A stretch of 24,868 bases of DNA, taken from positions 1-24,868 of the IMG/VR virus record IMGVR_UViG_3300044618_000417. The stretch is one strand, 5' to 3'. Made by a program: the position numbers and the translations under genes. This document shows, piece after piece, positions 3-17,954 of the stretch (its first letter is position 1; every line of letters starts with the position of its first letter). The notes beneath the pieces were generated by a model. It searched no databases, was not told the DNA's origin, and worked only from the letters and a program-made list of their open reading frames with translations. The DNA is from a virus. Lineage: Duplodnaviria; Caudoviricetes.

Positions 3-1217
3 GGGCTGGTGAAGCGAGTGCTGGTGCTGTGCCCCCTGTCGATCATGAAGTCGGCGTGGCAGCAAGACCTGTTCAAGTTCGCCATGCACCGCTCATGCGG
101 CGTGGCACATGGTACGGCTACGCAGCGCGCTGCGGTCGTCAACAGCGGAGCCGAGTTCGTCGTCATCAATTTCGACGGTCTCTCGGTTATCAAAGACCAG
201 ATCACAAGCGGTGGCTTTGACCTGATCGTGGTGGATGAGGCTAACGCCTACAAGAACCCACAGACCAACCGCTGGAAGGTGCTCAATGAGTTGGTCAAGA
301 CGAATGATCCTCGGCTATGGATGCTTACTGGTACGCCAGCAGCCCAATCACCTCTGGATGCGTTCGGTCTCGCCAAGCTGGTGAACCCAGACAAGTCTCC
401 AAAATACTACAGCTACTTCCGTGCTGACACCATGTATCAGCTGACGAAGTTCAAGTGGGTGCCCAAGCCAACCGCACCGGAGTATGTGCACAACGTCCTG
501 CAACCGGCGATCCGGTTCGAGAAGAAGGACTGCCTCGACCTACCAGAGGTCACCTACATGGACCGCGAAGCGCCGCTCACCCCGCAGCAAGCAAAATATT
601 ATAAGCAGCTGGCCAGTGAGTTGCTTGTCGAAGCTGATGGGGAGGAGATCAGTGCGGTCAACGCAGCGGTCAAGATCAACAAGCTCCTGCAGATCAGCGG
701 AGGTGCGGCCTATTCGGATACTGGAGAAGTCATAGAGTTCGATGTGTCCAACCGCCTCAACACGGTGCTGGAAGTCATTGAGGAGGCTAGCAACAAGGTG
801 CTGGTCTTCGTGCCATTCACCCACACCATCGAGCTTCTACGTACCAAGCTAGAGAAAGAGGGCATCACCTGTGGTGTCATCAACGGCAAGGTGTCGGTCA
901 ATAAGCGCAGTGAGCTTGTCGATAAGTTCCAGACGGACAAAGACCCTCATGTGCTTATCATCCAGCCACAGGCAGCCAGCCATGGGCTTACACTTACGGC
1001 AGCAGATACAATCATATGGTATGCGCCGGTCCCATCGGTGGAGACCTACCTACAGGCGAACGCCCGTATCAACCGTCCCGGCCAGAAGAACGCCATGACC
1101 GTCGTGCACATCAAGGGGAGCGAGGTCGAGGGCAGGCTATACTCGTTGCTGCGCAGCAACATCAACAACCATGAGCGCATCATCGACCTGTACAGGGACC
1201 TGCTGAATACCCCTTGA
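3..1217 (+). CDS. SNF2-family (SF2) helicase, N-terminally truncated by the window edge
   Basis: The frame is open from the window start (GLVKRVLVLCPLS), so GTG at 9 is probably not the true start. Motifs: Ia CPLS, II LIVVDEAN, III LTGTP, V SHGLTL, VI QANARINRPGQ. Walker A would lie upstream of the window. Confidence 0.92.
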   Translation, partial: GLVKRVLVLCPLSIMKSAWQQDLFKFAMHRSCGVAHGTATQRAAVVNSGAEFVVINFDGLSVIKDQITSGGFDLIVVDEANAYKNPQTNRWKVLNELVKTNDPRLWMLTGTPAAQSPLDAFGLAKLVNPDKSPKYYSYFRADTMYQLTKFKWVPKPTAPEYVHNVLQPAIRFEKKDCLDLPEVTYMDREAPLTPQQAKYYKQLASELLVEADGEEISAVNAAVKINKLLQISGGAAYSDTGEVIEFDVSNRLNTVLEVIEEASNKVLVFVPFTHTIELLRTKLEKEGITCGVINGKVSVNKRSELVDKFQTDKDPHVLIIQPQAASHGLTLTAADTIIWYAPVPSVETYLQANARINRPGQKNAMTVVHIKGSEVEGRLYSLLRSNINNHERIIDLYRDLLNTP

Positions 1218-1242
1218 CACTGTATAATGTAAGCAATAAACC
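1214..1242 (+). promoter_or_regulatory. Putative sigma70-type promoter for the 1270-2813 genes
   Basis: Perfect TTGACA (1214-1219, overlapping the helicase stop), a 17-bp spacer, then TAAACC (1237-1242), in an AT-rich gap. A strong SD (AAGGAG, 1258-1263) precedes ATG 1270. Confidence 0.6.
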
Positions 1243-1269
1243 TACCAACCCAACCATAAGGAGCAAACT

Positions 1270-1677
1270 ATGGAAGATGAAGTAATCCCAGCTGACAAGC
1301 TGGTGGCGGTCTACCGTCGCATACGTGCCGCGATAGACGAGAAAGAAACCGAGCATGCCAAAGAGATCGCAGTGCTCAAGGATAAGCTGGAGCTTGTTAG
1401 TGACAAACTCCTTAAGATTTGCAACGATCAGAACATGGACAGCCTTCGCACCCCCGAGGGTACGGTGACGCGCCGCATCAAGTCGCGCTACTGGACCACT
1501 GACTGGGAGCATATGTACAAGTTCATCAAGGAGCACGATGCGCCGTTCTTGCTAGAGCAGCGTATCCACAACGGGAATATGAAGCAGTTCCTTGAAGAAA
1601 ACCCCAACCTGCACCCTGCTGGGTTACAGGCGGACCGCAAATACGCCATCACCGTGCGTAAACCGATGAACAAGTGA
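1270..1677 (+). CDS. Hypothetical phage replication-module protein (135 aa, N-terminal coiled coil)
   Basis: Strong RBS AAGGAGCAAACT-ATG; helical, charged N-terminal half; lies between the helicase and the putative SSB. Function not recognised. Confidence 0.8.
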   Translation: MEDEVIPADKLVAVYRRIRAAIDEKETEHAKEIAVLKDKLELVSDKLLKICNDQNMDSLRTPEGTVTRRIKSRYWTTDWEHMYKFIKEHDAPFLLEQRIHNGNMKQFLEENPNLHPAGLQADRKYAITVRKPMNK

Positions 1678-1685
1678 GAGAAATT

Positions 1686-2576
1686 ATGAGCAACATCACC
1701 ATTTTTGAAGAGAGCAGCAACCTTCCAACCGTGAAGCGCGAGTCGCGTCTTGCGGACAAGATCAGTTCGGGCGGCGGCTTGCGCCGTATCGCCACTAACA
1801 CCAACGGTACGTTCAAGCGCATCGTGGGCGGTGAGCAGATCGGTCGTGCGGTGCCCCATGAGATCAACGTCATTGTCGTGGACATGCTGAAGGATGTGTC
1901 GCGCGAATATTATGCCTCTGAGTACGACCCTGAGGGTAAAGCTACGCTGCCTGACTGCTGGTCTGCCGATGGTCGCACTCCCGACCCCAAGGCTTCCAAT
2001 AGGCAAGCAGCCAGTTGCGCGTCGTGCCCGATGAACGTCGATGGTTCAGGCAACAAGGGCCGTGGTAAGGCTTGCCGCTTCAAGCGCCGCATCGCTGTGC
2101 TGGCCGAGGGTGACCCGACCGGTGACGTGTATCAGATGAGCCTCGCAGCCAAGTCGCTGTTCGGTAAGGGCGTCGGTAACACGCATCCTTTCGAGAGCTA
2201 CTGCAACTACCTTAAGGCTAACGGCGAAGCGCCGGACACTGTCGTGACCAAGGTTATGTACGATACCGAGGCAGACACGCTGACGCTGAAGTTCAAGGCC
2301 GTGCGTCACCTGACGCAGGAAGAAGCAGACCTCGTCGACAACGCCTTTGCTGACCCCGATACCCAGCGCTACATCAAGCTCACTGCTGCCGAAATGGACG
2401 GTGTGACGGCTAAGCCTGCCAAGGCTATCGAGGCACCTAAGCAGTCTGTGTTTGACGAGCCGGAAGAAGCAGAAGAGGAAGTCGCTGCACCTGCGAAGCG
2501 CGCGAAGAAGAGCGCGCCGGTTGAGGTCCCCGCCGAAGACACCGACCTTGCTACTCTCCTTGACGAATGGGACTAA
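1686..2576 (+). CDS. Putative ssDNA-binding/annealing protein with a 4-Cys (probable Zn) motif and acidic C-terminal tail
   Basis: ATG 1686 preferred over GTG 1674 (GAGAG upstream). Motif PDCWSADG...CASCPMN...GKACR; Ala/Pro/Glu linker; acidic end DTDLATLLDEWD typical of SSB tails; replication context. The function is inferred. Confidence 0.65.
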   Translation: MSNITIFEESSNLPTVKRESRLADKISSGGGLRRIATNTNGTFKRIVGGEQIGRAVPHEINVIVVDMLKDVSREYYASEYDPEGKATLPDCWSADGRTPDPKASNRQAASCASCPMNVDGSGNKGRGKACRFKRRIAVLAEGDPTGDVYQMSLAAKSLFGKGVGNTHPFESYCNYLKANGEAPDTVVTKVMYDTEADTLTLKFKAVRHLTQEEADLVDNAFADPDTQRYIKLTAAEMDGVTAKPAKAIEAPKQSVFDEPEEAEEEVAAPAKRAKKSAPVEVPAEDTDLATLLDEWD

Positions 2577-2579
2577 GTC

Positions 2580-2813
2580 ATGAGTTATGGATACAGCCTA
2601 AGGTTGGTCCGGCTTAATCGTGAGGCCGATCCTAGCAAACTTGGTGTGCAGCTCGGGCGTCTGTGCATAGAGCACGACATCCCTGTCACTGAGGTTGCTA
2701 GGCGGTTCAAGGTCACTCGGGTGACGGTGTACAACTGGTTCTGTGGGGATAGCTCCCCGAGGCCGAATGTTGCACCGCTACTCGAAGCCTACATCGCTGA
2801 CCTCGCGGCTTAA
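2580..2813 (+). CDS. Cro/XRE-like helix-turn-helix protein
   Basis: IPVTEVARRFKVTRVTVYNWFCG...P fits the XRE/Cro HTH pattern; 77 aa; starts 3 bp after the previous stop. Confidence 0.85.
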   Translation: MSYGYSLRLVRLNREADPSKLGVQLGRLCIEHDIPVTEVARRFKVTRVTVYNWFCGDSSPRPNVAPLLEAYIADLAA

Positions 2814-2867
2814 TGCTGTTTATATTAACGCATATACAGGGGGTTTCGCCCCTGATGACTGGTGCCC

Positions 2868-5714
2868 ATGAAAGACATAGACCTCTTGAGCATTGTGCAG
2901 CCGCCTGATGGGTGGTTCGCAATAATAGGTATCAAGGGGGCCGGAGCAGACTTAAAACGACAACAACACCTAGTAGAGACACGGGAAGAGGTAAGCACAA
3001 TCGCCGCGCGTTTGGTGCGCGGTAAGTGGAATGTGTTCTTCGGCGTAGCCAAATACACCGACGATTCCAGCCGACAGAAATCCAATGTGAAAGCACTGAG
3101 GGCCTTCTGGCTGGACATCGACTGCGGACCGAAGAAGGCCATACCCAACCCCAAGACGGGACGTCCGGAAGGATATATAGACCAAGCCACCGGACTGCTG
3201 GCACTTCGCCAGTTCTGCACGACTGTCGGGCTTCCCAAGCCCATCCTCGTTAACTCAGGGCGCGGTATACACGCATACTGGCCGCTAACCCGCGATGTCA
3301 CACGGGAGGAATGGGAGCCTACAGCTGCTCGACTGCGTGACCTATGCGTCACCCACGGGCTTATCGTCGACCCTGCTGTCTTTGAAGTTGCGCGCGTTCT
3401 GCGTATTCCCGGCACCCTTAATTTTAAGGACGACCCGCCTAATCCGGTGTCGATTATAACCACCGCCGACCCGATTGATTTCGATGAGTTCCGCAAGCTC
3501 CTCGGGGTTAAGGAGTCGAAGGCAATGGAGGTGCCCGAGCGCCCTCGCAGCAATCTCAGCGAGAAGCTGCAGGACAACAGCGTGTCGAGGTTCTCCAAGA
3601 TAATGAAGCGTAGCATCAAGGGCGACGGCTGCCAGCAGCTGGTGTCAAGCTATGAGGAGCGCGCCGAGCTATCCGAAGTGCGTTGGTTTGACGCCTTGTC
3701 AGTGGCTAAGTTCTGCGTGGATCGTGACACAGCGATCCAGAAGATGTCGCACGGGCATCCGGACTATGACCCTGTCAAGGCACTGGAGAAGACCAAGCAT
3801 ATCTCGGGGCCACATAACTGCGCCACCTTCGAGCGCAACAATCCCGGGGGGTGTTATGGCTGCCCCTACTTGGGTAAGATTAAGAACCCCATAGTGTTGG
3901 GTAGGGAAATAGCGGAAGCCGAGACAGAGGATGGCAACTATGTCGTGCCTGAGGCTGGTGAAGCTGACGTGCCGCAGGACTACCGCATACCCGAGTATCC
4001 CTTCCCATTCACACGGGGCAAGAAGGGCGGCATCTACATCAAGCCTGAAAAAGATGAGGAGCTACCTACTCTAGTCTACGAGCACGACCTATATCTCGTG
4101 AAGACGATGACTGACCCTAAAGATGGCGATGTCCTAGTCATGCGGTTGCATCTGCCGAAGGAAGGGGTGCGTGAGTTTATCATCACGCAGAAACAGGCGG
4201 TCGGGGATGCGGCGGAGCTACGCAAAGTGCTTGCGAGTAAGGGCGTAGCTGCGACCGAGAAACAGTTCAAAAGCATCATCTTGTTCGTGACCATGTCACT
4301 CAAGGCGATCCAATATAAAAGAAAGGCAGAACTTATGCGTATGCAGTTCGGATGGGCAGACAACGACAGCAAATTTATTATCGGTGACCGCGAGATCAGT
4401 CACGACGGTATATTCCACAGCCCTCCATCCTCGGCAACCAAGGAGCTTGCGGACCGCATGCACCCTGCAGGTTCGTACGACAAGTGGCAGGAAGTGTTCA
4501 ATCTATATGGGCGTCCGGGGTTGGAGCCACATGCGTTCGCAGCGCTGACTGCCTTTGGTGCACCGCTCTTCAAGTTTACGGGGCAGTCAGGGGCGATCCT
4601 TAACGTCATCCACCCTAGCTCTGGTACAGGTAAGACGACCATCCTGCACATGTGCAACAGCGTGTGGGGCCACCCTCGTGACCTATGTGCGATCAAGGGG
4701 GATACTGCCAACGCAAAGACCATGCAGCTGGGCATCCACAACAACCTGCCATTCTGCGTGGACGAGATCACCAACATGACCCCCACGGGGCTTTCCGAGA
4801 TGTCCTACAATATGAGCCAAGGACGTGGGAAGAACCGCATGAAAGCCTCGACCAACGAGCTGCGCATGAACAACACGACGTGGCAGACGATCAGCCTGTG
4901 CTCATCCAACTCCTCGTTCTACGAAAAGCTCGGCCTCCTTAAGAATAACCCGGACGGCGAAATGATGCGCCTAATAGAGTATAAGATAGGATATAACGAC
5001 GCGATCCCGACCGACATCGCAAAGGAGATGTTCGACCACCAGCTGCTCGAAAACTATGGGCATGCAGGTGCAATCTTTATCCAGTGGGTCATCAACAATC
5101 TCGAAGAGGTCAAGAACACGCTCAAGGTCGTGCAGGTGAAGATCGACCGAGAGCTGAAGCTGACGCAGCGGGAGCGCTTCTGGTCTGCGAAGGTCGCAGC
5201 CAACATCACGGGTGGCATGATTGCCCGTAGGTTGAAGATCATCGACTGGGACATGGGTCGCATATACCAATGGGCAACCAATATGATTTGCGAAACTCGG
5301 CAGGATGTCGAGCCACCTAACGTAACCACGACAGCGGTGCTCGGTGACTACCTCAACCGTAACATCCACAACATCCTCATCGTCAACGACAAGATGGATA
5401 ACCGCTCCAACATGCAGGCAATTCCGGAACTGGAGCCTAAGGGAGCGCTCTATGTTCGGTTCGAGCCAGATACGAAGCGCCTGTTCGTCGACTATAAGCA
5501 CTTCCGTGAGGAGTGCATCAAGGCACAGATCAACTTCAAGGAGGTCCTTAGCGGCCTCAAGAAGTCGGGGGCCTATGTACGCGCAGGTTCCAAGCGTCTA
5601 TCAAAGGGCATGCGCATCAACACACTGCCTGTGTACGCCATCGAGTTCGACACCAGCGTCAACGACTTCCTAGATATGGAAGGCTTTATCCCGGAGAGCG
5701 AGGATGCAAGTTGA
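2868..5714 (+). CDS. Primase-helicase fusion: AEP/RepB-like primase, Cys-rich domain, DUF927/Cch-like P-loop helicase
   Basis: AEP motifs FWLDIDCG, VNSGRGIHAYWPL and ARVLRIPGTLNFK; Walker A SSGTGKTT; Walker B FCVDEITN; QGRGKNRM. Start is ATG 2868 or GTG 2862. Confidence 0.88.
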   Translation: MKDIDLLSIVQPPDGWFAIIGIKGAGADLKRQQHLVETREEVSTIAARLVRGKWNVFFGVAKYTDDSSRQKSNVKALRAFWLDIDCGPKKAIPNPKTGRPEGYIDQATGLLALRQFCTTVGLPKPILVNSGRGIHAYWPLTRDVTREEWEPTAARLRDLCVTHGLIVDPAVFEVARVLRIPGTLNFKDDPPNPVSIITTADPIDFDEFRKLLGVKESKAMEVPERPRSNLSEKLQDNSVSRFSKIMKRSIKGDGCQQLVSSYEERAELSEVRWFDALSVAKFCVDRDTAIQKMSHGHPDYDPVKALEKTKHISGPHNCATFERNNPGGCYGCPYLGKIKNPIVLGREIAEAETEDGNYVVPEAGEADVPQDYRIPEYPFPFTRGKKGGIYIKPEKDEELPTLVYEHDLYLVKTMTDPKDGDVLVMRLHLPKEGVREFIITQKQAVGDAAELRKVLASKGVAATEKQFKSIILFVTMSLKAIQYKRKAELMRMQFGWADNDSKFIIGDREISHDGIFHSPPSSATKELADRMHPAGSYDKWQEVFNLYGRPGLEPHAFAALTAFGAPLFKFTGQSGAILNVIHPSSGTGKTTILHMCNSVWGHPRDLCAIKGDTANAKTMQLGIHNNLPFCVDEITNMTPTGLSEMSYNMSQGRGKNRMKASTNELRMNNTTWQTISLCSSNSSFYEKLGLLKNNPDGEMMRLIEYKIGYNDAIPTDIAKEMFDHQLLENYGHAGAIFIQWVINNLEEVKNTLKVVQVKIDRELKLTQRERFWSAKVAANITGGMIARRLKIIDWDMGRIYQWATNMICETRQDVEPPNVTTTAVLGDYLNRNIHNILIVNDKMDNRSNMQAIPELEPKGALYVRFEPDTKRLFVDYKHFREECIKAQINFKEVLSGLKKSGAYVRAGSKRLSKGMRINTLPVYAIEFDTSVNDFLDMEGFIPESEDAS

Positions 5715-5898
5715 GGGGGTAACCTACGAAATAAACTGGAAAGCCTTCAAGCGGGGCACGGCGATTTTCATCCCGTGCCTCAACCCCAAAGTGGCTAGAC
5801 CACAAGTACTTGCGGTCACCAAACGCCTGAGACTCAAGGTATTGATGCAGGTGGTGATCGAAGACGGAATACGGGGTTTACGCATCTGGCGTTTGTAG
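5704..5898 (+). CDS. Small basic hypothetical protein (64 aa)
   Basis: Overlaps the primase stop, with GAGG just upstream of the ATG; same strand as the operon; C-terminal IEDGIRGLRIWRL resembles small phage proteins ending in G-x-R-(V/I)-W-R. Confidence 0.7.
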   Translation: MQVEGVTYEINWKAFKRGTAIFIPCLNPKVARPQVLAVTKRLRLKVLMQVVIEDGIRGLRIWRL

Positions 5899-5905
5899 GT
5901 ATAAC
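5877..5905 (+). promoter_or_regulatory. Putative promoter for the intergenic small RNA
   Basis: TTTACG (5877-5882), exactly 17 bp, then TATAAC (5900-5905); no credible + strand CDS lies between it and the terminator. Confidence 0.5.
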
Positions 5906-5911
5906 CACCCT

Positions 5912-5984
5912 CGGAAGTTTGCTCCTTCCTTTGCTGAAACGCACCCTTCTTACCCCCGACTGCTCACTCAGTCGGGGGTTTTTT
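5912..5984 (+). ncRNA. Candidate ~73-nt trans-acting antisense (anti-RBS) sRNA
   Basis: Bounded by the predicted promoter and an intrinsic terminator. Stem-loop GGAAG-TTTGCTC-CTTCC (5913-5929). AGTTTGCTCCTT (5916-5927) is the exact reverse complement of AAGGAGCAAACT (1258-1269), the RBS of the 1270 gene. Confidence 0.5.
5952..5984 (+). terminator. Rho-independent terminator ending the + arm and the candidate sRNA
   Basis: 11-bp perfect stem ACCCCCGACTG / CAGTCGGGGGT, 6-nt loop CTCACT, followed by a T-run. The - strand side has no U-tract. Confidence 0.9.
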
Positions 5985-8900
5985 AATCCCTACCGATGGT
6001 CTTATCCGCGTAGTAGGACTCGACCTCGTTCAGCCCCATGCCTTGGATATCGTACTTCGCCTCCGACGCAGCGCCGGTCAGGGACTTATAGACATTGGCG
6101 TAGGTGATACCAAAATACGGATTCCCGACTTTCTTGTTGTAATCCATAATATCCTTGAGCGCCTTCTGGGCTTCTTCTCGCCCATCTGCATCACCGTTCT
6201 GGAAGCGGCGCACAGCGCGTTTATAGGCACCGAGCAGGTCGCTCTTCTCGTCCTGCAGTTCATTTTTCCGGTTGAGGATATCGCGGTTTTCTTGCTGCAC
6301 CTTGGCAACCTGTGTCGGGTTGAAGCCTAGCATTGCACCGATAATCTCAGCGTTACTCATCTCTTCGTTCGCCAGTTTGATCTTCTCAGTCTGGGTGCGT
6401 ACGCCCTCGGTTTCCAGTCGATAGGCTTTCAACGGTGCTTTGAGCATCGCAGGCAGGCCGAGTTCGAGGCCCTTGAGTACGTTACCTTTGGCAATCTCTT
6501 CACCCATGGTGACTACGTTGAGCGAAGCAGACGCACCGGGAATGTTTTCCACCAGCGCATTATTGATCGTCTGGGTCCACGTATCGGCATCCTTCGGTGC
6601 ACGGAACCACATGCCGACTAGGTCGAGCGACACGCGAGAGCCAAAGTTCCAACCGGTTGCCTCTGACACAGCGCCGTTGAGGATGATGTCGCCCAACGTG
6701 ATTTTCTTGCCCTTATCATCGGTCACCATAGGCTGGCCGAAGTGCTCAGGCAGCCACTCATAGCGGAACTGCATCTCGACACTATCCGCAGTAATCGGGT
6801 TCTGCCTCATTCGCTCCCTGCGGTCCTCGTCGTCATCCGTCATGTCCTGCAGTGCTTGAAGCGTCATCATGCCGAGCGAGTAAAGCGGAAGCGCAACGAC
6901 ACCACCCATCATGAACGACATGCCCAAGACGCCTGTCATTTCCTTCATAGCCGCAACACGCTCGGCACGGGGTGTATCCTTGCCGAAGATAGCCCGTGTG
7001 CTCTGCACGAAGAAGCGCGTGGTAATAACGGAGTACTGCTTGAAGAGGAACAGCGCCCGCGCAAGCTCACTGCCCTTCATGATAGGGGGCCGGTTGAGGT
7101 TGGTATAGTTGCCGAGCGTGTAGTTCACCGTGTCCTTGGCGGCGATGATAGCCTTGGTCTGTCGCTCTTCAGGAGACAGCCCTGCGCTGCCCAGCTTATC
7201 ATACTCAAGGTCATAGGCAGCCATGAACGCCACCTCGCGCGTCAGCTGCTCCGATGTGTCGAACAGATACGTCATAGCATCATATGCTTTCTGACGGACT
7301 TCCGAGATACGCCCTTCCGTTGCTGTCTGCGGAGTGCGTTCCTGACCCATAGTAAATTCAGACAGCGGTATGATAAGCCCATACTCATCTGTCGCGCGAA
7401 CCAGCGCATCCCGATGCCGCTTGCTGTTCTTGACGATGTTCGACTCCAAAAGCGTCGGGATACGGAACGTCTTGCGCGCCCCCTTCGATTTACTCTCACG
7501 CTTAGGAAGGTTGCTAAACACGTTCATATACCGGCCCATGGCACGGGTGGTCGCAGCCATGCCATATTTGCCCCATAGATTAGGAGCTACGCGGATAGGC
7601 AGTGCAGTGACCTGCACAAGCGCAGTTGCAGGCGCAGTGAGGAACGCGATGTAAGCCAGCTGGTTCATCCAAGGGACGATCTTGTTGACAAACCCGTCAG
7701 GCGCTGGCTCCATTTCCCCGTTGATGCGCTCTTGGATGCTGTTGATGAACTCACGCGCAATCACTCTTTGGTTCGGCTCTAGGCTTTCCATGGCGGAGGT
7801 AGCGGCGCTGATTGCCCGGTCAATGTCAGGTGCAAACTGCAGGCGCGCAGCATCCGTCGCATACTCCTCAGCCGTTACGCCTACTGTGCGCAGGATATCT
7901 GAACTCCAACCAAGGCGGTTCTTCGACTTGATGAACTGCTTGCGGCCAGACCCTTCCGGAGTGCTTTGCAGATACAGCTGGTAGATGTCCGCACGAAGCC
8001 GGGTCTTCTTACCTTCGGTGAACGTGTCTGGGTTAAGATCGGAGATCATTTTCAACGTCTTAACGAGCGCATCACCTGCGTCGAAGTCAGCGCCTAGGTC
8101 TTTCTGGGCGTCGTTGCCGTAATCAACATCCTTGTTGTTGTTGATATCCAGCCCGAACTCTTCCGCAGCTGCTTCTAGGTCAGCGTCACGCTCGTCCGCA
8201 GTCTCGTAGAACTTCAGGATAGGCTCACCAAACTTGGTGCTTTTGATGCGCAGCCAATAGTCGCCGTAGCGGCGCTTTGGGAAATACTCCCGGTGGAACA
8301 GGCCCAACGGAACCTCAGGATAGTCCTTATGCGCATCCTCTTTGGCAGGTGCGTTTACCTTATCATTAAGGCGCTCCTGCTCTGCTCGTATAGATACCAT
8401 CAACTGGGAAATGACATCCTCAGCTACACCCGCATCTCGTAGAGCCTCGATCCGCTTGTCCATAAAGAACTGCCGTGCGGTCTGCATATCGCGGTTCATA
8501 TTGCGGATACGCGTGTAGAGCTTACGCCCTTCCTTCCCGAGCTTGCTCAGAATACGCATCGCACCGTCGATATCGGCTTCACGCTGCTTCCGCTTGTCTT
8601 CGTAATCCTTCTTCGTCTTGGCATCCAGCGAAGGGTTTTGAAGTAGCTTGTTATACCGACGCCAAATCTGATCGGACTTGAACGCATTCTCGCGTGACGT
8701 CACCTCCATGAGTTTGACCATGTCGATATTGTAGTAGTTGCCATGGTCCATAGCGACGGGAAGTGCTTTCAGCTTTTTACCGCCGACCACGATGGGGTCC
8801 GCATTGCTGAGCAGATACTCTTTAAGGTCGCCCACCATCTTATTGAGTGTACGACGCGTAGTGGCGCGACTACCATTCATCCTGTCCGCAATGTCGATTG

Positions 8901-11900
8901 CGTTGCGTAGTTCCCGGGTGATCGGCGTATCGCCTAGCATCGTCTCCATAAGGTCAAGCGCACCGTCTGTCGGCATTGCTTTGAGACCCTTACGTTCTAC
9001 CCAACCCCTATCAAAGTTCTTGAGCGAGAAACCTTTGGACCAGTTTTTGGAAGTCTTGCTTTTAAGTGATGCGCCGATACCCCCAAAGAAACCACGGGAA
9101 AAAGTCTCCATATCCTGCTGGTCTGTCGTGGTGGTAGCGACCTTCTCGATGGATTCCTGTGCGGCAATAGCGGCGTCGGCTGTCTCTTGGCTTGCCTCTT
9201 GCTGCTCCGGTGTGCTGAACATCATCGACGAGCTACCCATGACAGTTCCCTCACCAGAGAGAGCTTGCTCATGAGCCATAGCAAGGATGGTGCGCACCTC
9301 GCGGTCATTGAATTTGAGGTCGAGGCCCAAATACTGGCGAGCGAAGTCCTTGATGAACTTGACCAGCTTGTCGAACCGGCTTGCCCGCAGCGGACCTTTT
9401 TCCGACGCAGAAGCGAGCACTTCCTCTACTGCGCGAGCGGTAGGGTTTTCATCCTGCTTGTATAGGTCTTGGTTCGCATTGAGCCACTTGTCAGCCAGCC
9501 CAGCTACATTCTTGTTGGTACGGTAGATATCGGTCAGGACCTTATCCAACCCGTCCCGGAACCGTGCACGTAGGCCAAGGTGCCCAAGAGCCTCATGGTA
9601 GAGCGTAGGCGCTACATCATCAACGCCGTTCATATTGTCAGCGATCAGGTACGCCTTGCCGTCCTTGTAGAAACCGAAAGCATCAGTGCGCCCAAGGTCT
9701 TCGATCTCTTTGCGGATAGCCGCAGGTAGGTCAGCAGCAGACTGCACCGTCTTAGGTTCGAGCCTCGCACCCCAGCGGCTCGTGATTTCCTCGACAGCTG
9801 CGTTAAGCTCTTCCAGCGTAATACCAGTGGCTTTGCCTTTAGCCTTCCGGAACATATACGACTCTGGCGTCAGGTCGCGCACCATGCGGTCATACTGCTG
9901 CTTGTTGATCTTGCCTTCAGCTAGGCGCTCTTTTAACTTCTCAATCGCCTCTGCCGGTGCACGCTTAGCTTGTGCAAGTTTAGCGCGGACCGCTTTGTAG
10001 ATACCCTCCTTGGCTTTTACCTGCTCTGCACGCTTGGATTTGACACGTCTAGCGAGTTGAGCTGCACGGTTTTTAAGTTCCGCTTTCTTAGCAGTCTGAG
10101 CTTCTTTATCGGTCAACTCTTCCGCCGCCGCTTCCTCGATACGCAGCTGCCGCCCCTCTTTGGTGAGCGCATCAATCTCGTTCTGGATACGGATGGTCGG
10201 GTTCCACACGCTGCGCAGTGCTCGGCGCTTGGCGAGTTCTTCGTCGGTTAGCCCGCGCCTATATATGTCCATCTCTTCTGCGGTCGGGGTGCGCAGCATA
10301 TCAATAAGTTCGGTGCGCTGGGCGTCGTTAATGAGTTTCGCCCTACGGTTGCGGTCGATCTCTTCCAGCAACCCTTGCTGTTGCTCCTGCGCAGGAGTCA
10401 GCTTACCCGCACCTGCCGGTCCTTTTGGTTCCGGTTCAGCCTCTACGGGTTTAGCTTCCTCTAGACCCCGTGCTTTACCTGCGGGCATCTGTTTGACAGG
10501 CACGCCCTCGATCACCTGCTTGGGCTGGATCGGCGTCTCGTTCAGGATGCGGTTCTTAACGCTATTAAGGTTGGGGGAGCTGAATATAGCTTTGCCACCC
10601 GGAAGCCCGTAGGAATACCGACGACGGTCCTTACTCGCATCGTAGCGTATTTCGAAACCGGGATTGTACTGGTCTACCTCAGCCTGCGCAGCCTGCACTT
10701 CAGGCGGCAGCTCGATAGCTGGAGCTGTTTCAGTAGGAGCAGCAATATCCTGTTCCAGTGTTCCAGCAGTTTCGGAAACTTCTTGCTCGGGCGCAGCTGC
10801 AGCCTCTGCGATGGGGGCAGCTTCTTCTACAACTGGTGCAGCCGGTGCAGCCGGTGCAGCGGTAGCTTGCCTTGCTTGTTCGATAAACGCGTTAACGGTA
10901 CCAATTTCGTTCCCAATGAACTCCGAAAGCGCAAGTTCACGGTCAGGGGTTATAATACCTTTAATGCCAGTAGCCGTCATAGCATCAACATATTGGCGTG
11001 CTATGCTTTCGACGAGCGGAGCAGGGGCAGGTTTTCCTTTGTACGCTATGTACTCGTCTATCTGCGCGTTCAAATCCGGCAGTGTGCTTTCTACCGGCGC
11101 AGCCTCAGGCGCAGGGGCAGGAGCAACTTCAGGCGCAGGCGCAACTTTAGGGGCCAACTGCTCAGCAATCTGGGCTTCAGGGCTGACTTGCTCGATAGGC
11201 GGGATAATCGGTTGGGGTGTTAGTGTAGGCTCGACAACTCCCTCGCCAGCCATAGGTTGTCCAGTAGGAACGCTAGTTCCTCCCACTGGTCGTCGTCCAG
11301 CATCTGCAGGTGGTCCGGCAGGTTCTGCAACGGCATCTGGTTCGCCAACACCCGAAACGTCAGGCTCACTTCCTCCAATGTCAGGTTCGCTAACAGCACT
11401 TGGTGCCTCCTCTTGTCTGCGCGCGGTTTGCTGCTGCTCGCGTTCGTAGACCGCAAGCTCGATTGCTTTGGCCGAGTCAATCCCACTAAGCAGCTGCATA
11501 TACTCGGCAGCGCGCGTACGAATTTCAGGGTCTTCAGCTTCCGGTATACCCGTAGCAGCAATGTCTGCTTCAAGTTCTTCGCGCTCACTAAGGATTTCCT
11601 CATCCGAGGTGATGGGACGTGCTCCGCCACGGTCAAACGCACCTAAAGTTCCGCCGAGAATACCACCAGCGAGACCTTCGAATGCAGCCTGCCCCGCCAC
11701 GCCAGCCATGAGGTCAGTCTCATACCCCGCGCGTTGCTGTGCTAAATTCTGTGCAAACCGTTCTTGGCCTGCCTGCGCAGCTTCAGGAAGAGCTTCAGCC
11801 CCAAACCCTGTGACCCCGCGACGGACAACCCCACGCCTGACTTGCTGCTCGACAGCTTCTTCGGCACCCTCTTCGATAACATCAGTAACCGCACGTTTAG

Positions 11901-12672
11901 CAATTATACGGCCCAACGCCTTGTCGAAACCAGTAGCACTGGCGACACCACCAAGCACACCGCCCAGCGCGATCATATCGAGGTTGTCGCCGCCATAGGC
12001 TTGCGCCTGCTCGGCCATCAGCTCTGCTTCTTTTTCCGGTACGCCAGCTTCACGGGCGCGGGCGTATACAGCGTCACTGACACTGCCTTTTACGGTACCA
12101 ACACCTGAAGCGATACCAAGCCCCGCAGCGGCAGGAAGACCAGCACCAGACGCAGCGGCAGCGACAAACGGAATTGCGCCCCCTGCAACTTCCGCCAGAG
12201 TATCAATCGGATTGATGGTAAACGCACGGGCTGCAGCCTTAACTTCCTCCCATATGCCTTTACCCTCAGCTTCCCGCTGGATAGCCGCTGCGGTCTTGGC
12301 GTCTTCACGCGACTGCGCAGAAGTCAGGCTTTCTGCATATTGAGATACATCTTCGAGGAAGTCAGACGCCGCATTATCGGCACCAAACAGATCGGTAAAA
12401 GACTTACCTGTATTAGCCAACCCAGAGACAACATTGAGCGGGACATCCGCTGCACCCGCAAGCAAACCCCCAACAACGGGGATTCCCTCAAGGAAGTTCT
12501 CTTCATTCTTGCGCCAGCTTTCCGGGTTCGCTGGGTCGCCTCCGAGAAACTCATACCCATTCTGAAACGTCCCCTTTTTCGGGGGAAGCTTACTCCAGCT
12601 GCTAGGGGACGCAGGGTCGCCGCCCGTATAGCGGTACCCGTCTTTAACTGTACCGACTGTAGGGTTCGCCAT
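5983..12672 (-). CDS. Large polyvalent internal virion / DNA-ejection protein (2229 aa)
   Basis: RBS AAAGGA. Two N-terminal GY-x3-GGDP-x6-W repeats, Gly/Ala hydrophobic helices, an Ala/Pro/Glu linker, a zincin-like HEALGH...EEVLA motif, a YFPKRRYGDY (PLxRFG-like) motif and a helical C-terminal region. Last gene of the structural arm, like T7 gp16/P22 gp16. Confidence 0.8.
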   Translation of the reverse strand: MANPTVGTVKDGYRYTGGDPASPSSWSKLPPKKGTFQNGYEFLGGDPANPESWRKNEENFLEGIPVVGGLLAGAADVPLNVVSGLANTGKSFTDLFGADNAASDFLEDVSQYAESLTSAQSREDAKTAAAIQREAEGKGIWEEVKAAARAFTINPIDTLAEVAGGAIPFVAAAASGAGLPAAAGLGIASGVGTVKGSVSDAVYARAREAGVPEKEAELMAEQAQAYGGDNLDMIALGGVLGGVASATGFDKALGRIIAKRAVTDVIEEGAEEAVEQQVRRGVVRRGVTGFGAEALPEAAQAGQERFAQNLAQQRAGYETDLMAGVAGQAAFEGLAGGILGGTLGAFDRGGARPITSDEEILSEREELEADIAATGIPEAEDPEIRTRAAEYMQLLSGIDSAKAIELAVYEREQQQTARRQEEAPSAVSEPDIGGSEPDVSGVGEPDAVAEPAGPPADAGRRPVGGTSVPTGQPMAGEGVVEPTLTPQPIIPPIEQVSPEAQIAEQLAPKVAPAPEVAPAPAPEAAPVESTLPDLNAQIDEYIAYKGKPAPAPLVESIARQYVDAMTATGIKGIITPDRELALSEFIGNEIGTVNAFIEQARQATAAPAAPAAPVVEEAAPIAEAAAAPEQEVSETAGTLEQDIAAPTETAPAIELPPEVQAAQAEVDQYNPGFEIRYDASKDRRRYSYGLPGGKAIFSSPNLNSVKNRILNETPIQPKQVIEGVPVKQMPAGKARGLEEAKPVEAEPEPKGPAGAGKLTPAQEQQQGLLEEIDRNRRAKLINDAQRTELIDMLRTPTAEEMDIYRRGLTDEELAKRRALRSVWNPTIRIQNEIDALTKEGRQLRIEEAAAEELTDKEAQTAKKAELKNRAAQLARRVKSKRAEQVKAKEGIYKAVRAKLAQAKRAPAEAIEKLKERLAEGKINKQQYDRMVRDLTPESYMFRKAKGKATGITLEELNAAVEEITSRWGARLEPKTVQSAADLPAAIRKEIEDLGRTDAFGFYKDGKAYLIADNMNGVDDVAPTLYHEALGHLGLRARFRDGLDKVLTDIYRTNKNVAGLADKWLNANQDLYKQDENPTARAVEEVLASASEKGPLRASRFDKLVKFIKDFARQYLGLDLKFNDREVRTILAMAHEQALSGEGTVMGSSSMMFSTPEQQEASQETADAAIAAQESIEKVATTTTDQQDMETFSRGFFGGIGASLKSKTSKNWSKGFSLKNFDRGWVERKGLKAMPTDGALDLMETMLGDTPITRELRNAIDIADRMNGSRATTRRTLNKMVGDLKEYLLSNADPIVVGGKKLKALPVAMDHGNYYNIDMVKLMEVTSRENAFKSDQIWRRYNKLLQNPSLDAKTKKDYEDKRKQREADIDGAMRILSKLGKEGRKLYTRIRNMNRDMQTARQFFMDKRIEALRDAGVAEDVISQLMVSIRAEQERLNDKVNAPAKEDAHKDYPEVPLGLFHREYFPKRRYGDYWLRIKSTKFGEPILKFYETADERDADLEAAAEEFGLDINNNKDVDYGNDAQKDLGADFDAGDALVKTLKMISDLNPDTFTEGKKTRLRADIYQLYLQSTPEGSGRKQFIKSKNRLGWSSDILRTVGVTAEEYATDAARLQFAPDIDRAISAATSAMESLEPNQRVIAREFINSIQERINGEMEPAPDGFVNKIVPWMNQLAYIAFLTAPATALVQVTALPIRVAPNLWGKYGMAATTRAMGRYMNVFSNLPKRESKSKGARKTFRIPTLLESNIVKNSKRHRDALVRATDEYGLIIPLSEFTMGQERTPQTATEGRISEVRQKAYDAMTYLFDTSEQLTREVAFMAAYDLEYDKLGSAGLSPEERQTKAIIAAKDTVNYTLGNYTNLNRPPIMKGSELARALFLFKQYSVITTRFFVQSTRAIFGKDTPRAERVAAMKEMTGVLGMSFMMGGVVALPLYSLGMMTLQALQDMTDDDEDRRERMRQNPITADSVEMQFRYEWLPEHFGQPMVTDDKGKKITLGDIILNGAVSEATGWNFGSRVSLDLVGMWFRAPKDADTWTQTINNALVENIPGASASLNVVTMGEEIAKGNVLKGLELGLPAMLKAPLKAYRLETEGVRTQTEKIKLANEEMSNAEIIGAMLGFNPTQVAKVQQENRDILNRKNELQDEKSDLLGAYKRAVRRFQNGDADGREEAQKALKDIMDYNKKVGNPYFGITYANVYKSLTGAASEAKYDIQGMGLNEVESYYADKTIGRD

Positions 12673-12686
12673 GTGTTATTCCTTTG

Positions 12687-14270
12687 TCACTGGTACTGCG
12701 TCCACGGACCGGCGGGGGCTGCTCCCTCTCCCTCTAAACCGAGAAGCGGAGAGCTGCCTTTACCGTTAAGCTTCAACCATTCCTTAGCAGCTTCTTTAAG
12801 GGCTTTGTCCCCACTCATAAACATCTGAAACACCGAAGTGTTGACATCAGCACCTTTGCTTCGGAGCGCGGCGACTTCTGCGCTGAGTTTCTGTCTGGCC
12901 AAAGCCATCTCTTGCGCGGAGACATCCTGACGGAACTTAAGTTCTTTCTCTTGGAATGCCAATGCCCGTTCTGCAGCGTCTGTGGCCATGCCGGATTTGT
13001 AGACATCTATGCCAAGCTCGACGCCAGCCATAGCGGTCTTGCGGTCCACATCTTCGAGCGCCATGAGGGTGCGTACAGCTTCGTTCTTAGCAGCTTTGCG
13101 CTCTTTCTTAGAATCCCCATACACGCCCATTGCGGCTTTAGCGGCCTTCCCGATAGACCCGATAATCCCTTCGCCCTTATAGTCTTCGGGAGACATTAGG
13201 TCGAAGCCAAGGGTAGCTAGCGCTTGAGCCGTGTCATACTTGGCCTGCTTTTCGATATTGGCAGGATCAAGCTCTTCAAGCGCAACTGCTTTGGCGCGCT
13301 CAAGTGCTTCACGAGGGAGACCCGCAAACATTTTCTGGCCAAACGCAATGGAGTCCTCGGCAGACATGCTACGTCCTGCAGCAGTCGTTGTGTCAGCTTC
13401 GCGGGGCATAGGAGCACCCTCCAGCCCAAGACGCCCTAGGATATCACTGCTATACTTCTGGGTTTTCGGTCCCCAGCCCTTACGGTCTGGCCCTGCAAAA
13501 TAGTAAGCAGCGGACTTGCTTGGGTCGCCTTTGCCGTAGCTCCATGCTTCCCGTACCGCTTCGCGGGTAAGCGCATCTTGATACTCTCGTGCCGCCTCGT
13601 CATCACCCGCCATCAGGTCAGGACGATATTCACGCTTGAGGCGCTTAGCGATAGCCCTAGCCGTGTCCGGCATAATCTGCCCGATACCCATTGCACCAGA
13701 GCCTTCGGCATTAGGGATACCGTAGCGGCCACCAGACTCTTGCTGGATGATAGCGCGATAGAAGTCGTCAAACCCAGTGCCTCCGCCTCTTGCAAAGGCG
13801 ACCAACCCACCACCGGCAAAGCTACCATTGCTAGGTTCGTCAAACATATCGTCAGGCACAGACAGAGAAGCGACGCCGCCCATAGCCATACCGGGCATGG
13901 GCATCTCAGGTGCAGGCATAGCTGCGGCTTCTGGCGTAGCGCCAAGTCCGGCGGGAGCGGGAGGAGCTTCCCCTCCACGTAGCACAGGAATAGAATCCCC
14001 AAAGGCTGCTAGCAGATTAGCATCAAGTTGAGATGTTGGAGTCTGTTGGTACTGCGATGGGCGGCCCATGACCTGCTGGGCTACAGTCTGCTGAGGGATA
14101 GCTTCCGCCTGTGCTGCACCACGCATGCGGTCAATAAACATACCAGCCAACGTGCCAGCAGTCGGGTCAATAACGCCCATCTGCATAGCCTCAGCGATCT
14201 TCTGCTTGTTGCCGCCATAGTCCTTAGCAATCTGCTCAGGGGACTGAAGACTAAAGGGTTTGGTTTCCAT
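12687..14270 (-). CDS. Internal virion protein with an SLT-type lytic transglycosylase domain
   Basis: AIIQQESGG (catalytic Glu), GAMGIGQIMPDTA and AAYYFAGP match SLT motifs I-III; coiled-coil C-terminus; located in the ejection-protein cluster. Confidence 0.85.
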   Translation of the reverse strand: METKPFSLQSPEQIAKDYGGNKQKIAEAMQMGVIDPTAGTLAGMFIDRMRGAAQAEAIPQQTVAQQVMGRPSQYQQTPTSQLDANLLAAFGDSIPVLRGGEAPPAPAGLGATPEAAAMPAPEMPMPGMAMGGVASLSVPDDMFDEPSNGSFAGGGLVAFARGGGTGFDDFYRAIIQQESGGRYGIPNAEGSGAMGIGQIMPDTARAIAKRLKREYRPDLMAGDDEAAREYQDALTREAVREAWSYGKGDPSKSAAYYFAGPDRKGWGPKTQKYSSDILGRLGLEGAPMPREADTTTAAGRSMSAEDSIAFGQKMFAGLPREALERAKAVALEELDPANIEKQAKYDTAQALATLGFDLMSPEDYKGEGIIGSIGKAAKAAMGVYGDSKKERKAAKNEAVRTLMALEDVDRKTAMAGVELGIDVYKSGMATDAAERALAFQEKELKFRQDVSAQEMALARQKLSAEVAALRSKGADVNTSVFQMFMSGDKALKEAAKEWLKLNGKGSSPLLGLEGEGAAPAGPWTQYQ

Positions 14271-16425: not shown

Positions 16426-17954
16426 TATGCAAGCCCCCGCAGAAGGTTAGGCCCGTCCTCACCACGCGGCGTTTTTTTACGTGACTGCTCTGCCTTACGC
16501 ATCAAGGAGTAAAGTTTTTTAGTGCCTTTATTATGGTCACCCCCTCCGATACGTTCGACTGCATCGTAGGGAAAGTAGATTTCGCCCGAAGCTACACGGG
16601 CTTCTTGGGTACCGCCAATACGAGCAGGTATAGAGTCACTAGTGCCATCGCCCGGGCCAATAAGCGGGATACCACCCAAGGGGGCAACTGCTTCGATAGC
16701 TGCTGGGAAACTACCTTTACCTATCTCAGCGGCCTCACGGGCGGATATGATGAACCCGCCATCGTCTATATGGACTTCACCGCCCTTGTTGTAACCTCGA
16801 CCGCCCGCGTATGGGATTTCTTCGAAGGAATACATCGGCTGACCCTTCTTGGGTCTCGGATTAAACATCGACTTTACAATCGGCGTACCCGGTTTGGTTT
16901 GCGTACCCGGCTGAGCTACCTGACCTTGCGCGTTGTAGATTTCCTGCACATCGACCGGGAAGTAGTCACGCTCCTTAGACGACCCAAGGATGTCGCTGGT
17001 GTTTTCTGCAAAGACCGGCTTGCGCTCCTGCGCAGTGTATGGACCCTGATATGAGTTGTCGATCTGGCCCGAAGAGGTTTTCATACCTGATGGGGTAGCT
17101 GCAGCGTTTACGCCACTAAGGACACCTAGCCCTGCTATAGCAGGAGCAGCTTTGGAGACGATACCGGGTGCACCGGCAGGGATGCCAGCACGAGCAGCTT
17201 CCGCAAATTTACCGAAGAAGCCGGGAGCCTTAGTAGCAGCTTGCTGCGCTACATTACCAACGACTGGGTTTATCGGGCCACCAGCGAGTATTCCCGGTGT
17301 TCCTCCTACACCAGTTACGGTAGAGCTAAGGCCGCGAAGCCCAGACGAAGCCGCTGCAGGAGCAGTAGAAGCGGCAGAACCGGCGGCAGAACCAGCAGCG
17401 CCTGCGGTGGGAAGAGCCGTGCTAGCGGCCTGTGCAGCTTTGCCAATACCAAAAGAGCCAGCGTTAAGGCCAGCTGCCGAGCCGAGCGCAGCGCCGCCAT
17501 ATGCTTGGAGGCCAGCCATGAGACCTTTACCGAGACTGCCCGTGGCGATACCCGTGCCTGCACCGATGAGAGCACTTGCTGTGAGTGGATTAATCAGACC
17601 CCCAGTAAGCGGCGTGGCGATTGCACCAAGGATCGTTGGAAGCAGTTTGCCAAGCCAACCAGCTTCAGGTAGCCCGGTGCTCGGGTTGATGGTGAGCGAG
17701 CCGCCTGTGGCCATAGCCAGCCCCTGAAGGCTGTTTACCTCTGCGGGTGTCATGTGGACGAGCATGGTATCTTCGCCACGTCCCTGCGCCTGAAGCTGCT
17801 GCGCTATCGGGTTACCAAGCACGGACAGACCACCTTGCGCCGGAGGCGAGTTAGCAGTTACCGGGTTCTGCTGACCGAGCATAGGTGGGGTACCTGAAGG
17901 GGGCATCCCTGCACCAGCGGGTGTATACGGAGACTGTGCCGGTTGAAGGTTCAT
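16425..17954 (-). CDS. Putative internal virion protein (509 aa)
   Basis: RBS AGGA. N-terminal GRGEDTMLVHMTPAEV...TINPSTGLPEA motif, Gly/Ala hydrophobic segments, C-terminal GPGDGTSDSIPAR...GE motif. Confidence 0.65.
   Translation of the reverse strand: MNLQPAQSPYTPAGAGMPPSGTPPMLGQQNPVTANSPPAQGGLSVLGNPIAQQLQAQGRGEDTMLVHMTPAEVNSLQGLAMATGGSLTINPSTGLPEAGWLGKLLPTILGAIATPLTGGLINPLTASALIGAGTGIATGSLGKGLMAGLQAYGGAALGSAAGLNAGSFGIGKAAQAASTALPTAGAAGSAAGSAASTAPAAASSGLRGLSSTVTGVGGTPGILAGGPINPVVGNVAQQAATKAPGFFGKFAEAARAGIPAGAPGIVSKAAPAIAGLGVLSGVNAAATPSGMKTSSGQIDNSYQGPYTAQERKPVFAENTSDILGSSKERDYFPVDVQEIYNAQGQVAQPGTQTKPGTPIVKSMFNPRPKKGQPMYSFEEIPYAGGRGYNKGGEVHIDDGGFIISAREAAEIGKGSFPAAIEAVAPLGGIPLIGPGDGTSDSIPARIGGTQEARVASGEIYFPYDAVERIGGGDHNKGTKKLYSLMRKAEQSRKKTPRGEDGPNLLRGLA

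Follow-up and report, generated by a model that had tools for sequence, protein, structure and literature searches.

A conserved phage element complementary to a tag in the ribosome-binding sites of early and replication genes

In cluster K mycobacteriophages, the start-associated sequence (SAS) is an extended ribosome-binding-site (RBS) tag with AGGAG, which according to the passages on SAS in PMC3203893 lies a few bases before the starts of non-structural genes only. The same passages describe several cluster K genomes in which one SAS copy is reversed and not tied to a gene start, and leave open whether an RNA or a protein is the SAS binder (PMC3203893). Loop-presented complementarity is known from c4 of P1 and P7 and sar of P22, phage RNAs that block translation at the RBS of a phage mRNA; as outlined in PMC12197685, they have a single target, an antirepressor, and serve in temperate immunity. 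The phage small RNAs covered in the relevant sections of that review have either a single phage mRNA or host genes as their targets (PMC12197685). In Vibrio cholerae, OppZ and CarZ are described in the abstract-level account of PMC7398697 as RNase E-processed host small RNAs from operon 3' ends, which inhibit translation of their own transcript and so act on their own operon.

Here we analyzed a window of 24,868 nucleotides (IMG/VR record IMGVR_UViG_3300044618_000417), for which a preliminary description had proposed a small RNA antisense to the RBS of one gene. The element is a real, conserved feature, and it is richer than first described.

The element and its gene setting

The window is part of a tailed-phage genome, in which genes for an SNF2 helicase, a 135-aa protein, a 296-aa protein, a small HTH protein, a DUF927 primase-helicase, and a 64-aa protein run rightward, and a leftward arm carries virion, ejection, and lysis genes. 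A record of 51,957 nt (G001) is identical to the whole window and also contains the upstream early arm, with genes for a MoxR-like ATPase, DUF2201, a Holliday-junction-resolvase-like nuclease, DNA polymerase A, and others. On the plus strand of the window, the 135-aa protein (1270–1677) gives just weak DUF7307 or Mu Gam-like hints. The 296-aa protein (1686–2576, plus strand), whose own RBS is untagged in the window phage, belongs to PHROG families of unknown function; the label of SSB given to it earlier is not borne out, there being no Pfam match and no match to a named PHROG. The 77-aa HTH protein (2580–2813), with weak HTH matches below the cut-off, the primase-helicase (2868–5714), recognized by domain matches, and the 64-aa conserved protein of unknown function (5704–5898), which is the locus marker for the element, follow on the same strand. 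The gap behind them is 84 nt long, as previously stated, and extends from the stop of the 64-aa ORF, which ends at 5898, to the stop (5983–5985) of a convergent ORF. The latter encodes a 2229-aa virion/ejection-type protein (5983–12672, minus strand) and ends at the terminator described below.

A TTGACA promoter box (1214–1226, plus strand) before the 135-aa gene is conserved, and TTGACA or TTGACT was found at most 75 nt upstream of this gene in 73 of 86 relatives. The box often lies within a TTGACA-n-TGTCAA palindrome, which is often near-perfect and recurs once ahead of the nuclease gene region in two relatives (G003 and G007). The palindrome is a possible operator, with the 77-aa HTH protein as a candidate partner. 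A small ORF of 36 aa with a GTG start runs through the gap on the opposite strand; the length and sequence of the gap vary freely among relatives. Farther along the window, a 595-aa tail-fibre-like gene contains an internal direct repeat (21394–21864; about 189 nt, 84%).

The 12-nt complementarity reported in the preliminary description was confirmed. The seed at 5916–5927 (plus strand, AGTTTGCTCCTT) is the exact reverse complement of 1258–1269 (plus strand, AAGGAGCAAACT), which directly precedes the ATG at 1270 and consists of AAGGAG and CAAACT. This site is the tagged RBS of the 135-aa gene and is one of ten in the phage, the other nine being located upstream of the window. The match is the longest that region 5899–5985 has elsewhere in the window, and the bases flanking it are unpaired on either side. 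When 5906–5951 was shuffled with CTCCTT kept, a 12-nt match to any of 18 start regions was obtained in 64 of 20000 shuffles.

The predicted small RNA (5912–5985, plus strand, about 73 nt) has its 5' end placed by reference to the promoter, which would be composed of a predicted −35 box, TTTACG (5877–5882), within the last codons of the 64-aa gene and a predicted −10 box, TATAAC (5900–5905), both on the plus strand. The two boxes and the 17-nt spacer are present as proposed earlier, but the promoter is missing from the list of a consensus promoter scan, and the −10 box of the window is imperfect, with C instead of T at its last position (the family mode is TATACT); the promoter is thus the least secure of the features described earlier. 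The seed hairpin (5913–5929, plus strand) has the GGAAG/CUUCC stem and UUUGCUC loop already described, which appear in both the MFE and centroid folds. The tag-reading bases are in the loop, whose bases are largely unpaired by computation, and half of the generic anti-Shine-Dalgarno (anti-SD) sequence is in the stem. A variable linker (5930–5951, plus strand) leads to an intrinsic terminator for rightward transcription (5952–5984, plus strand; 11-bp stem and U-run), and the strength earlier ascribed to it agrees with the terminator scan, in which 5952–5979 with the T-run ranked top. The fold z of the predicted RNA was −4.8, mostly due to the terminator. A covariance model found the element in single copy in the 52-kb record, and the Rfam search that had been proposed gave no match at the cut-off, in this record or near the element.

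Conservation of the element and covariation with the tag

Loci were collected via the 64-aa gene as the marker, and 104 distinct regions downstream of it were compared among relatives. A terminator was called in 90 of the 104, and CTCC, the anti-SD core, lies ahead of the terminator in 85 of those 90; two of the 14 loci without a terminator call (L132 and L138) are false misses. The element is dispensable, because about one in eight relatives is without it. L029 retains the terminator behind the 64-aa gene and the CAA tag of the 135-aa gene but has a deletion of the seed hairpin, which may be a recent loss. Longer elements with at least two CU-rich anti-SD motifs or hairpins were seen in L023, L035, L052, L053, L055, L162, L172, and L174.

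Of the 66 relatives with GCTCCT, 56 retain the first stem with its full set of five pairs, compared to 3.1% when the 5' side was shuffled. The stem arms are GGAAG/CTTCC (37), GAGAG/CTCTC (9), GCAAG/CTTGC (3), and GACAG/CTGTC (2); the 5' stem covaries, and the tag-reading bases are always in the loop. In a 41-sequence alignment, hand-chosen from the main class, two helices beat all 500 shuffles by each measure, and the covariation count from this alignment is soft, because a one-column slide kept as many double changes. In most of the held-out loci, the covariance model gave a match immediately downstream of the marker gene.

Signals of a putative promoter recur across the family. TTTACG was the commonest −35 call (29 of 90). 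Among 80 element-bearing phages, 54 have TTA and 24 have TTG as the Leu59 codon, which forms the −35 box, compared to a TTA usage of 527 of 6972 (7.6%) in the primase Leu codons; among the 14 loci without a terminator call, TTA is found at this codon in just three. In 38 of 90 relatives, the sequence behind the stop codon contains a −10-like box with five or more of the six consensus bases, as against 7.3% of shuffles. The synonymous-codon bias and the conserved −10 box support a putative promoter of the element's own, with the imperfect −10 of the window as a reservation.

The 64-aa marker family is estimated at roughly 1600 stretches in IMG/VR. No cultured relatives of the 64-aa gene were found, and the matches in the genome collection carry unrelated labels. 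Pseudomonas phage Rollin and Rhizobium phage RHph_TM3_14A are distant cultured phages with primases 24–30% identical; neither an enriched tag nor the element was found in these two, with just a terminator-level match (E 0.08). RHph_TM3_14A (L199) has a hairpin (17450–17485) whose loop is anti-SD-like, within a gap that has no annotation; it is maybe coding sequence and chance, because one reading frame across it stays open over some 78 codons.

In order to compare cognate and swapped combinations of element and target, 80 loci were used, 18 being skipped (no terminator call or no 135-aa gene); two loci were dropped for a mis-called terminator, and 44 distinct ones were obtained after collapsing. 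In these 44 phages, the longest complement was 9.41 nt for cognate and 7.50 nt for swapped combinations, and none of the 20000 permutations reached the cognate value. This outcome answers the earlier proposal to look for covariation in related phages: the seed and the RBS tag of the 135-aa gene change together. The antisense pairing originally proposed for the 135-aa RBS is thereby strengthened, but its restriction to one target is not, since the tag is found before ten genes. The window's own target ranked 24th of 44 by duplex energy. A match of at least 8 nt was found at the RBS of the 135-aa gene in 35 of 44, at those of the 296-aa gene and the primase in 8 of 44 each, and at that of the HTH gene in 0 of 43.

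Of 78 scorable phages (86 loci), 56 have identical triplets in the seed and after GGAG in the tag, and an exact tag-seed match is absent in the other 22, four of which have a CAG seed against a CAA tag. The seed/tag classes CAA, CGA, and CTA switch together between lineages. The CAA seed is common to most of the primase tree, and the CGA/CGA and CTA/CTA pairs form their own branches, each in two separate places, with weak deep support. The swap matrix is block-like: the window RNA matches 12–14 genes in G003, G007, and G012 and just 1–4 genes in G017, G022, G024, and G026. GGAG-CAA starts amount to 110 of 395 in phages with a CAA seed, 24 of 263 in those with a different seed, and 10 of 116 in those without the element, where six of the ten come from two loci in which just the terminator call failed. 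Lineages without the element are largely without the tag.

Among mismatches, G was found opposite an RNA U in 40 of 85 (background 26%, p = 4e-5), and the wobble test opposite an RNA G was flat (36 of 98, p = 0.34); p-values in this analysis are optimistic, because the genomes are related and hence not independent. RNA–RNA pairing is favored by the covarying stem, the rightward terminator, and the excess of G opposite RNA U.

In some relatives, the linker carries a second seed for the primase start region. The duplex energy of linker and primase was −8.99 kcal/mol for cognate and −7.47 kcal/mol for swapped combinations (0 of 20000 permutations, n = 57). Complementarity of 8–15 nt to the primase start region was observed in the linkers of L064 (15 nt), L015 and L183 (10 nt), L141, and L007; the window phage has a match of 5 nt only, GCACC at 5941–5945 against 2861–2865. 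Many relatives have a hairpin ahead of the primase start. In L003 and L006, the linker can pair with the 135-aa leader immediately 5' of the SD, which gives a two-part duplex. This additional pairing, striking in a few phages such as L003, was rejected as a general feature, with 1034 of 20000 permutations and no such pairing in the window phage.

The class of tagged genes

In the 51,957-nt record, GGAGCAA occurs ten times on the plus strand, from 2590 to 13477, each time just before a start codon. Among the genes so tagged are those of the DNA polymerase, of the 135-aa protein, and of the helicase whose end part is encoded at the start of the window; GGAGCAA is found before 0 of 33 late-arm starts. 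The triplet after GGAG is CAA in ten early genes, and no triplet is favored in late genes. One tagged early gene of this record (7558–7932; L081) encodes an RNA polymerase alpha-CTD-like domain (PF03118, above the cut-off), and its product is a possible transcription decoy.

The same contrast was observed in nine long genomes, with genes from a simple in-house caller. Of 298 early-strand genes, 79 match the phage's own RNA over at least 8 nt, as do 7 of 265 late-strand genes, although the contrast is not significant singly in two of the nine (G022 and G023). With GGAG-SD genes only, the counts were 74 of 189 early and 3 of 92 late. The latter result led us to reject a generic anti-SD explanation, in line with the earlier view that the match is more than a plain anti-SD.

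A blind search gave a top upstream 7-mer of the early arm that is complementary to the phage's own element in 14 of 27 genomes. Examples are GGAGCTA in G022, whose seed is UUAGCUCC, and TCAAGGA in G024, where the RNA differs accordingly. The top motif was not complementary to the own element in 13 of 27 genomes, many of which are short fragments, and G011, which is without the element, showed no complementary upstream motif. Perfect targets are few in G013 (3/30), G023 (2/37), G025 (3/33), G010 (1/11), and G015 (2/17); in G013, the common GGAGTAA would pair by G-U. The ten tagged RBSs had net binding energies between −7.9 and −17.1 kcal/mol, and 13 untagged GGAG RBSs had energies between −1.2 and −11.3 kcal/mol (p = 4.5e-4). 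The 135-aa gene is the most conserved target, its homologs having a match of at least 8 nt in 22 of 25 genomes. In most cases a tagged gene is preceded by a gap, and untagged genes often overlap the upstream stop, which suggests that the tags sit on independently initiating genes.

Proposed mechanism and comparison with known systems

The anatomy, complementarity, covariation, and class restriction described above are read directly from the sequences, and from them we infer expression of the RNA, repression via SD occlusion, its timing, and selectivity by hiding of the anti-SD. The element probably yields a promoter-driven, trans-acting RNA, which would lower early and replication translation in mid-infection and feed back on its own operon. 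The loop of the gap element is complementary to the AGGAG-CAA tag in the RBSs of about ten early and replication genes. The RNA would be made from its own sigma70-type promoter, possibly also by read-through from the replication operon, and would therefore accumulate once the early mRNAs have already been translated. The exposed loop would nucleate on the tag bases, the weak 5-bp stem would open, and 8–13 bp would then cover the SD and spacer, so that 30S loading would be blocked. The half of the anti-SD hidden in the stem would leave untagged late and host SDs spared. Coupled downstream genes would fall along with the tagged genes, because tagged starts mostly follow a gap and their untagged neighbors overlap the upstream gene. 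The RNA would also act as negative feedback on replication, because it ends the operon whose first gene it targets, and translation would be lowered as infection passes from replication to virion building. Since loop and tag change together between lineages, one small RNA likely shuts off translation of the tagged class.

The same pairing and targets could also be served without a promoter, if the RNA were the 3' UTR of the replication operon mRNA, uncut or RNase-processed, acting by OppZ/CarZ-like autoregulation or by a long-range fold-back onto the first RBS. We regard this, the main rival, as unlikely. The element does lie on the same strand directly behind the last gene of the operon 1270–5898 with the terminator in common, the operon's first gene is the target kept most widely, the window −10 deviates as noted, and a few long elements have the seed hairpin 25–40 nt further downstream. 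However, TTA or TTG at the −35 position in 78 of 80 and the −10 enrichment point to a promoter, and pure cis fold-back is insufficient, because nine targets are on upstream transcripts. That the tag is a DNA or RNA site of a phage protein, stoperator-like or bound by a translational repressor, with 5916–5927 as a further copy in late-strand orientation, seems quite improbable to us. Transcription-oriented asymmetric repeats are known in phages (L5 stoperators are mentioned in the SAS passages of PMC3203893), HTH genes are present, and one wobble test was negative; against this, the inverted copy is in a hairpin with a covarying stem and fixed loop between a promoter-like site and a rightward terminator, mismatches opposite RNA U favor G, and the primase start, which is unrelated, pairs with a second seed that covaries with it.

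Pairing with the tags might also occur without repression, the RNA protecting, timing, or handing over tagged mRNAs, for example by guiding a nuclease or protein or by shielding them from host or phage shut-off. The sign of regulation is unreadable from sequence, and the tagged genes include the DNA polymerase and helicase, which are needed during replication. Such a role is nevertheless very unlikely in our estimate: the duplex covers the SD and spacer, and no partner protein was identified. A duplex at this position blocks 30S binding by an established small-RNA mechanism. An immunity or carrier-state switch against related phages, as the preliminary description suggested, could draw on seed classes that differ by lineage, as in the heteroimmune c4 RNAs outlined in PMC12197685, and a superinfecting relative could be silenced if several of its early genes were blocked at once. 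This is extremely improbable, because no integrase or resolvase, that is, no tyrosine or serine recombinase, was found in five of five complete relatives. The genome collection gave just three matches, all MAG contigs, and the CAA seed extends across most of the tree, unlike diversifying immunity.

In the literature searched, no description of the RNA family or of a tag-reading phage RNA was found, although supplements to structured-RNA surveys such as PMC5737381 may hold it as an unnamed motif. The class of mechanism is known; regulon-wide tag reading in a lytic phage was not found in print. Broadening the trans-acting reading, we see about an even chance that lytic phages run an RNA-addressed translational program, in which an SD-spacer barcode marks early genes, one RNA shuts the class off, and both drift together. 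If true, this logic would amount to a general early-to-late switch, one that evolved convergently and works without a regulatory protein. A single RNA co-evolving with the tag of about ten genes of its own phage would be a new form of lytic-cycle timing. CAA, CGA, and CTA are natural orthogonal seed/tag pairs, testable without phage culture.

The element resembles c4 and sar, as outlined in PMC12197685, in the predicted RBS occlusion by the loop of a phage RNA, but it has about ten early/replication targets with a common tag, in phages without a recombinase. No antirepressor target in a temperate immunity region was found, the targets being early and replication genes, and the c4 and sar Rfam families gave no match at the cut-off (sar 17.5 bits against a cut-off of 43, terminator only). 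The best sub-threshold Rfam match, NsiR1 (RF02399, 23.4 bits against a cut-off of 39), is likewise a short RNA with a similar terminator hairpin, but the match begins at 5932 and leaves out the seed. Like OppZ and CarZ in the account of PMC7398697, the element is at the 3' end of the operon with which it pairs; it differs from them in its promoter signals and in its many predicted targets, which lie on other transcripts.

The SAS of cluster K mycobacteriophages appears to be the closest parallel in print. As far as the SAS passages go, both tags have conserved bases that do not pair with rRNA and adjoin the SD, both mark non-structural genes only and in one orientation, and a lone inverted copy is found in both the SAS genomes and the element family. 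The SAS tag is 13 bp long and belongs to another phage group, with no RNA partner shown for it in those passages; the tag here, of about 7–10 nt, is of the AGGAGCAA type and departs from the 13-bp cluster K consensus. The inverted copy here, in contrast to that of SAS as described, is part of a hairpin that covaries and is accompanied by a predicted promoter and a terminator, and it changes together with the tag. The barcode logic, if true, would explain the SAS tags, unexplained since 2011, and the element thus offers a testable answer to the question of the SAS binder raised in PMC3203893.
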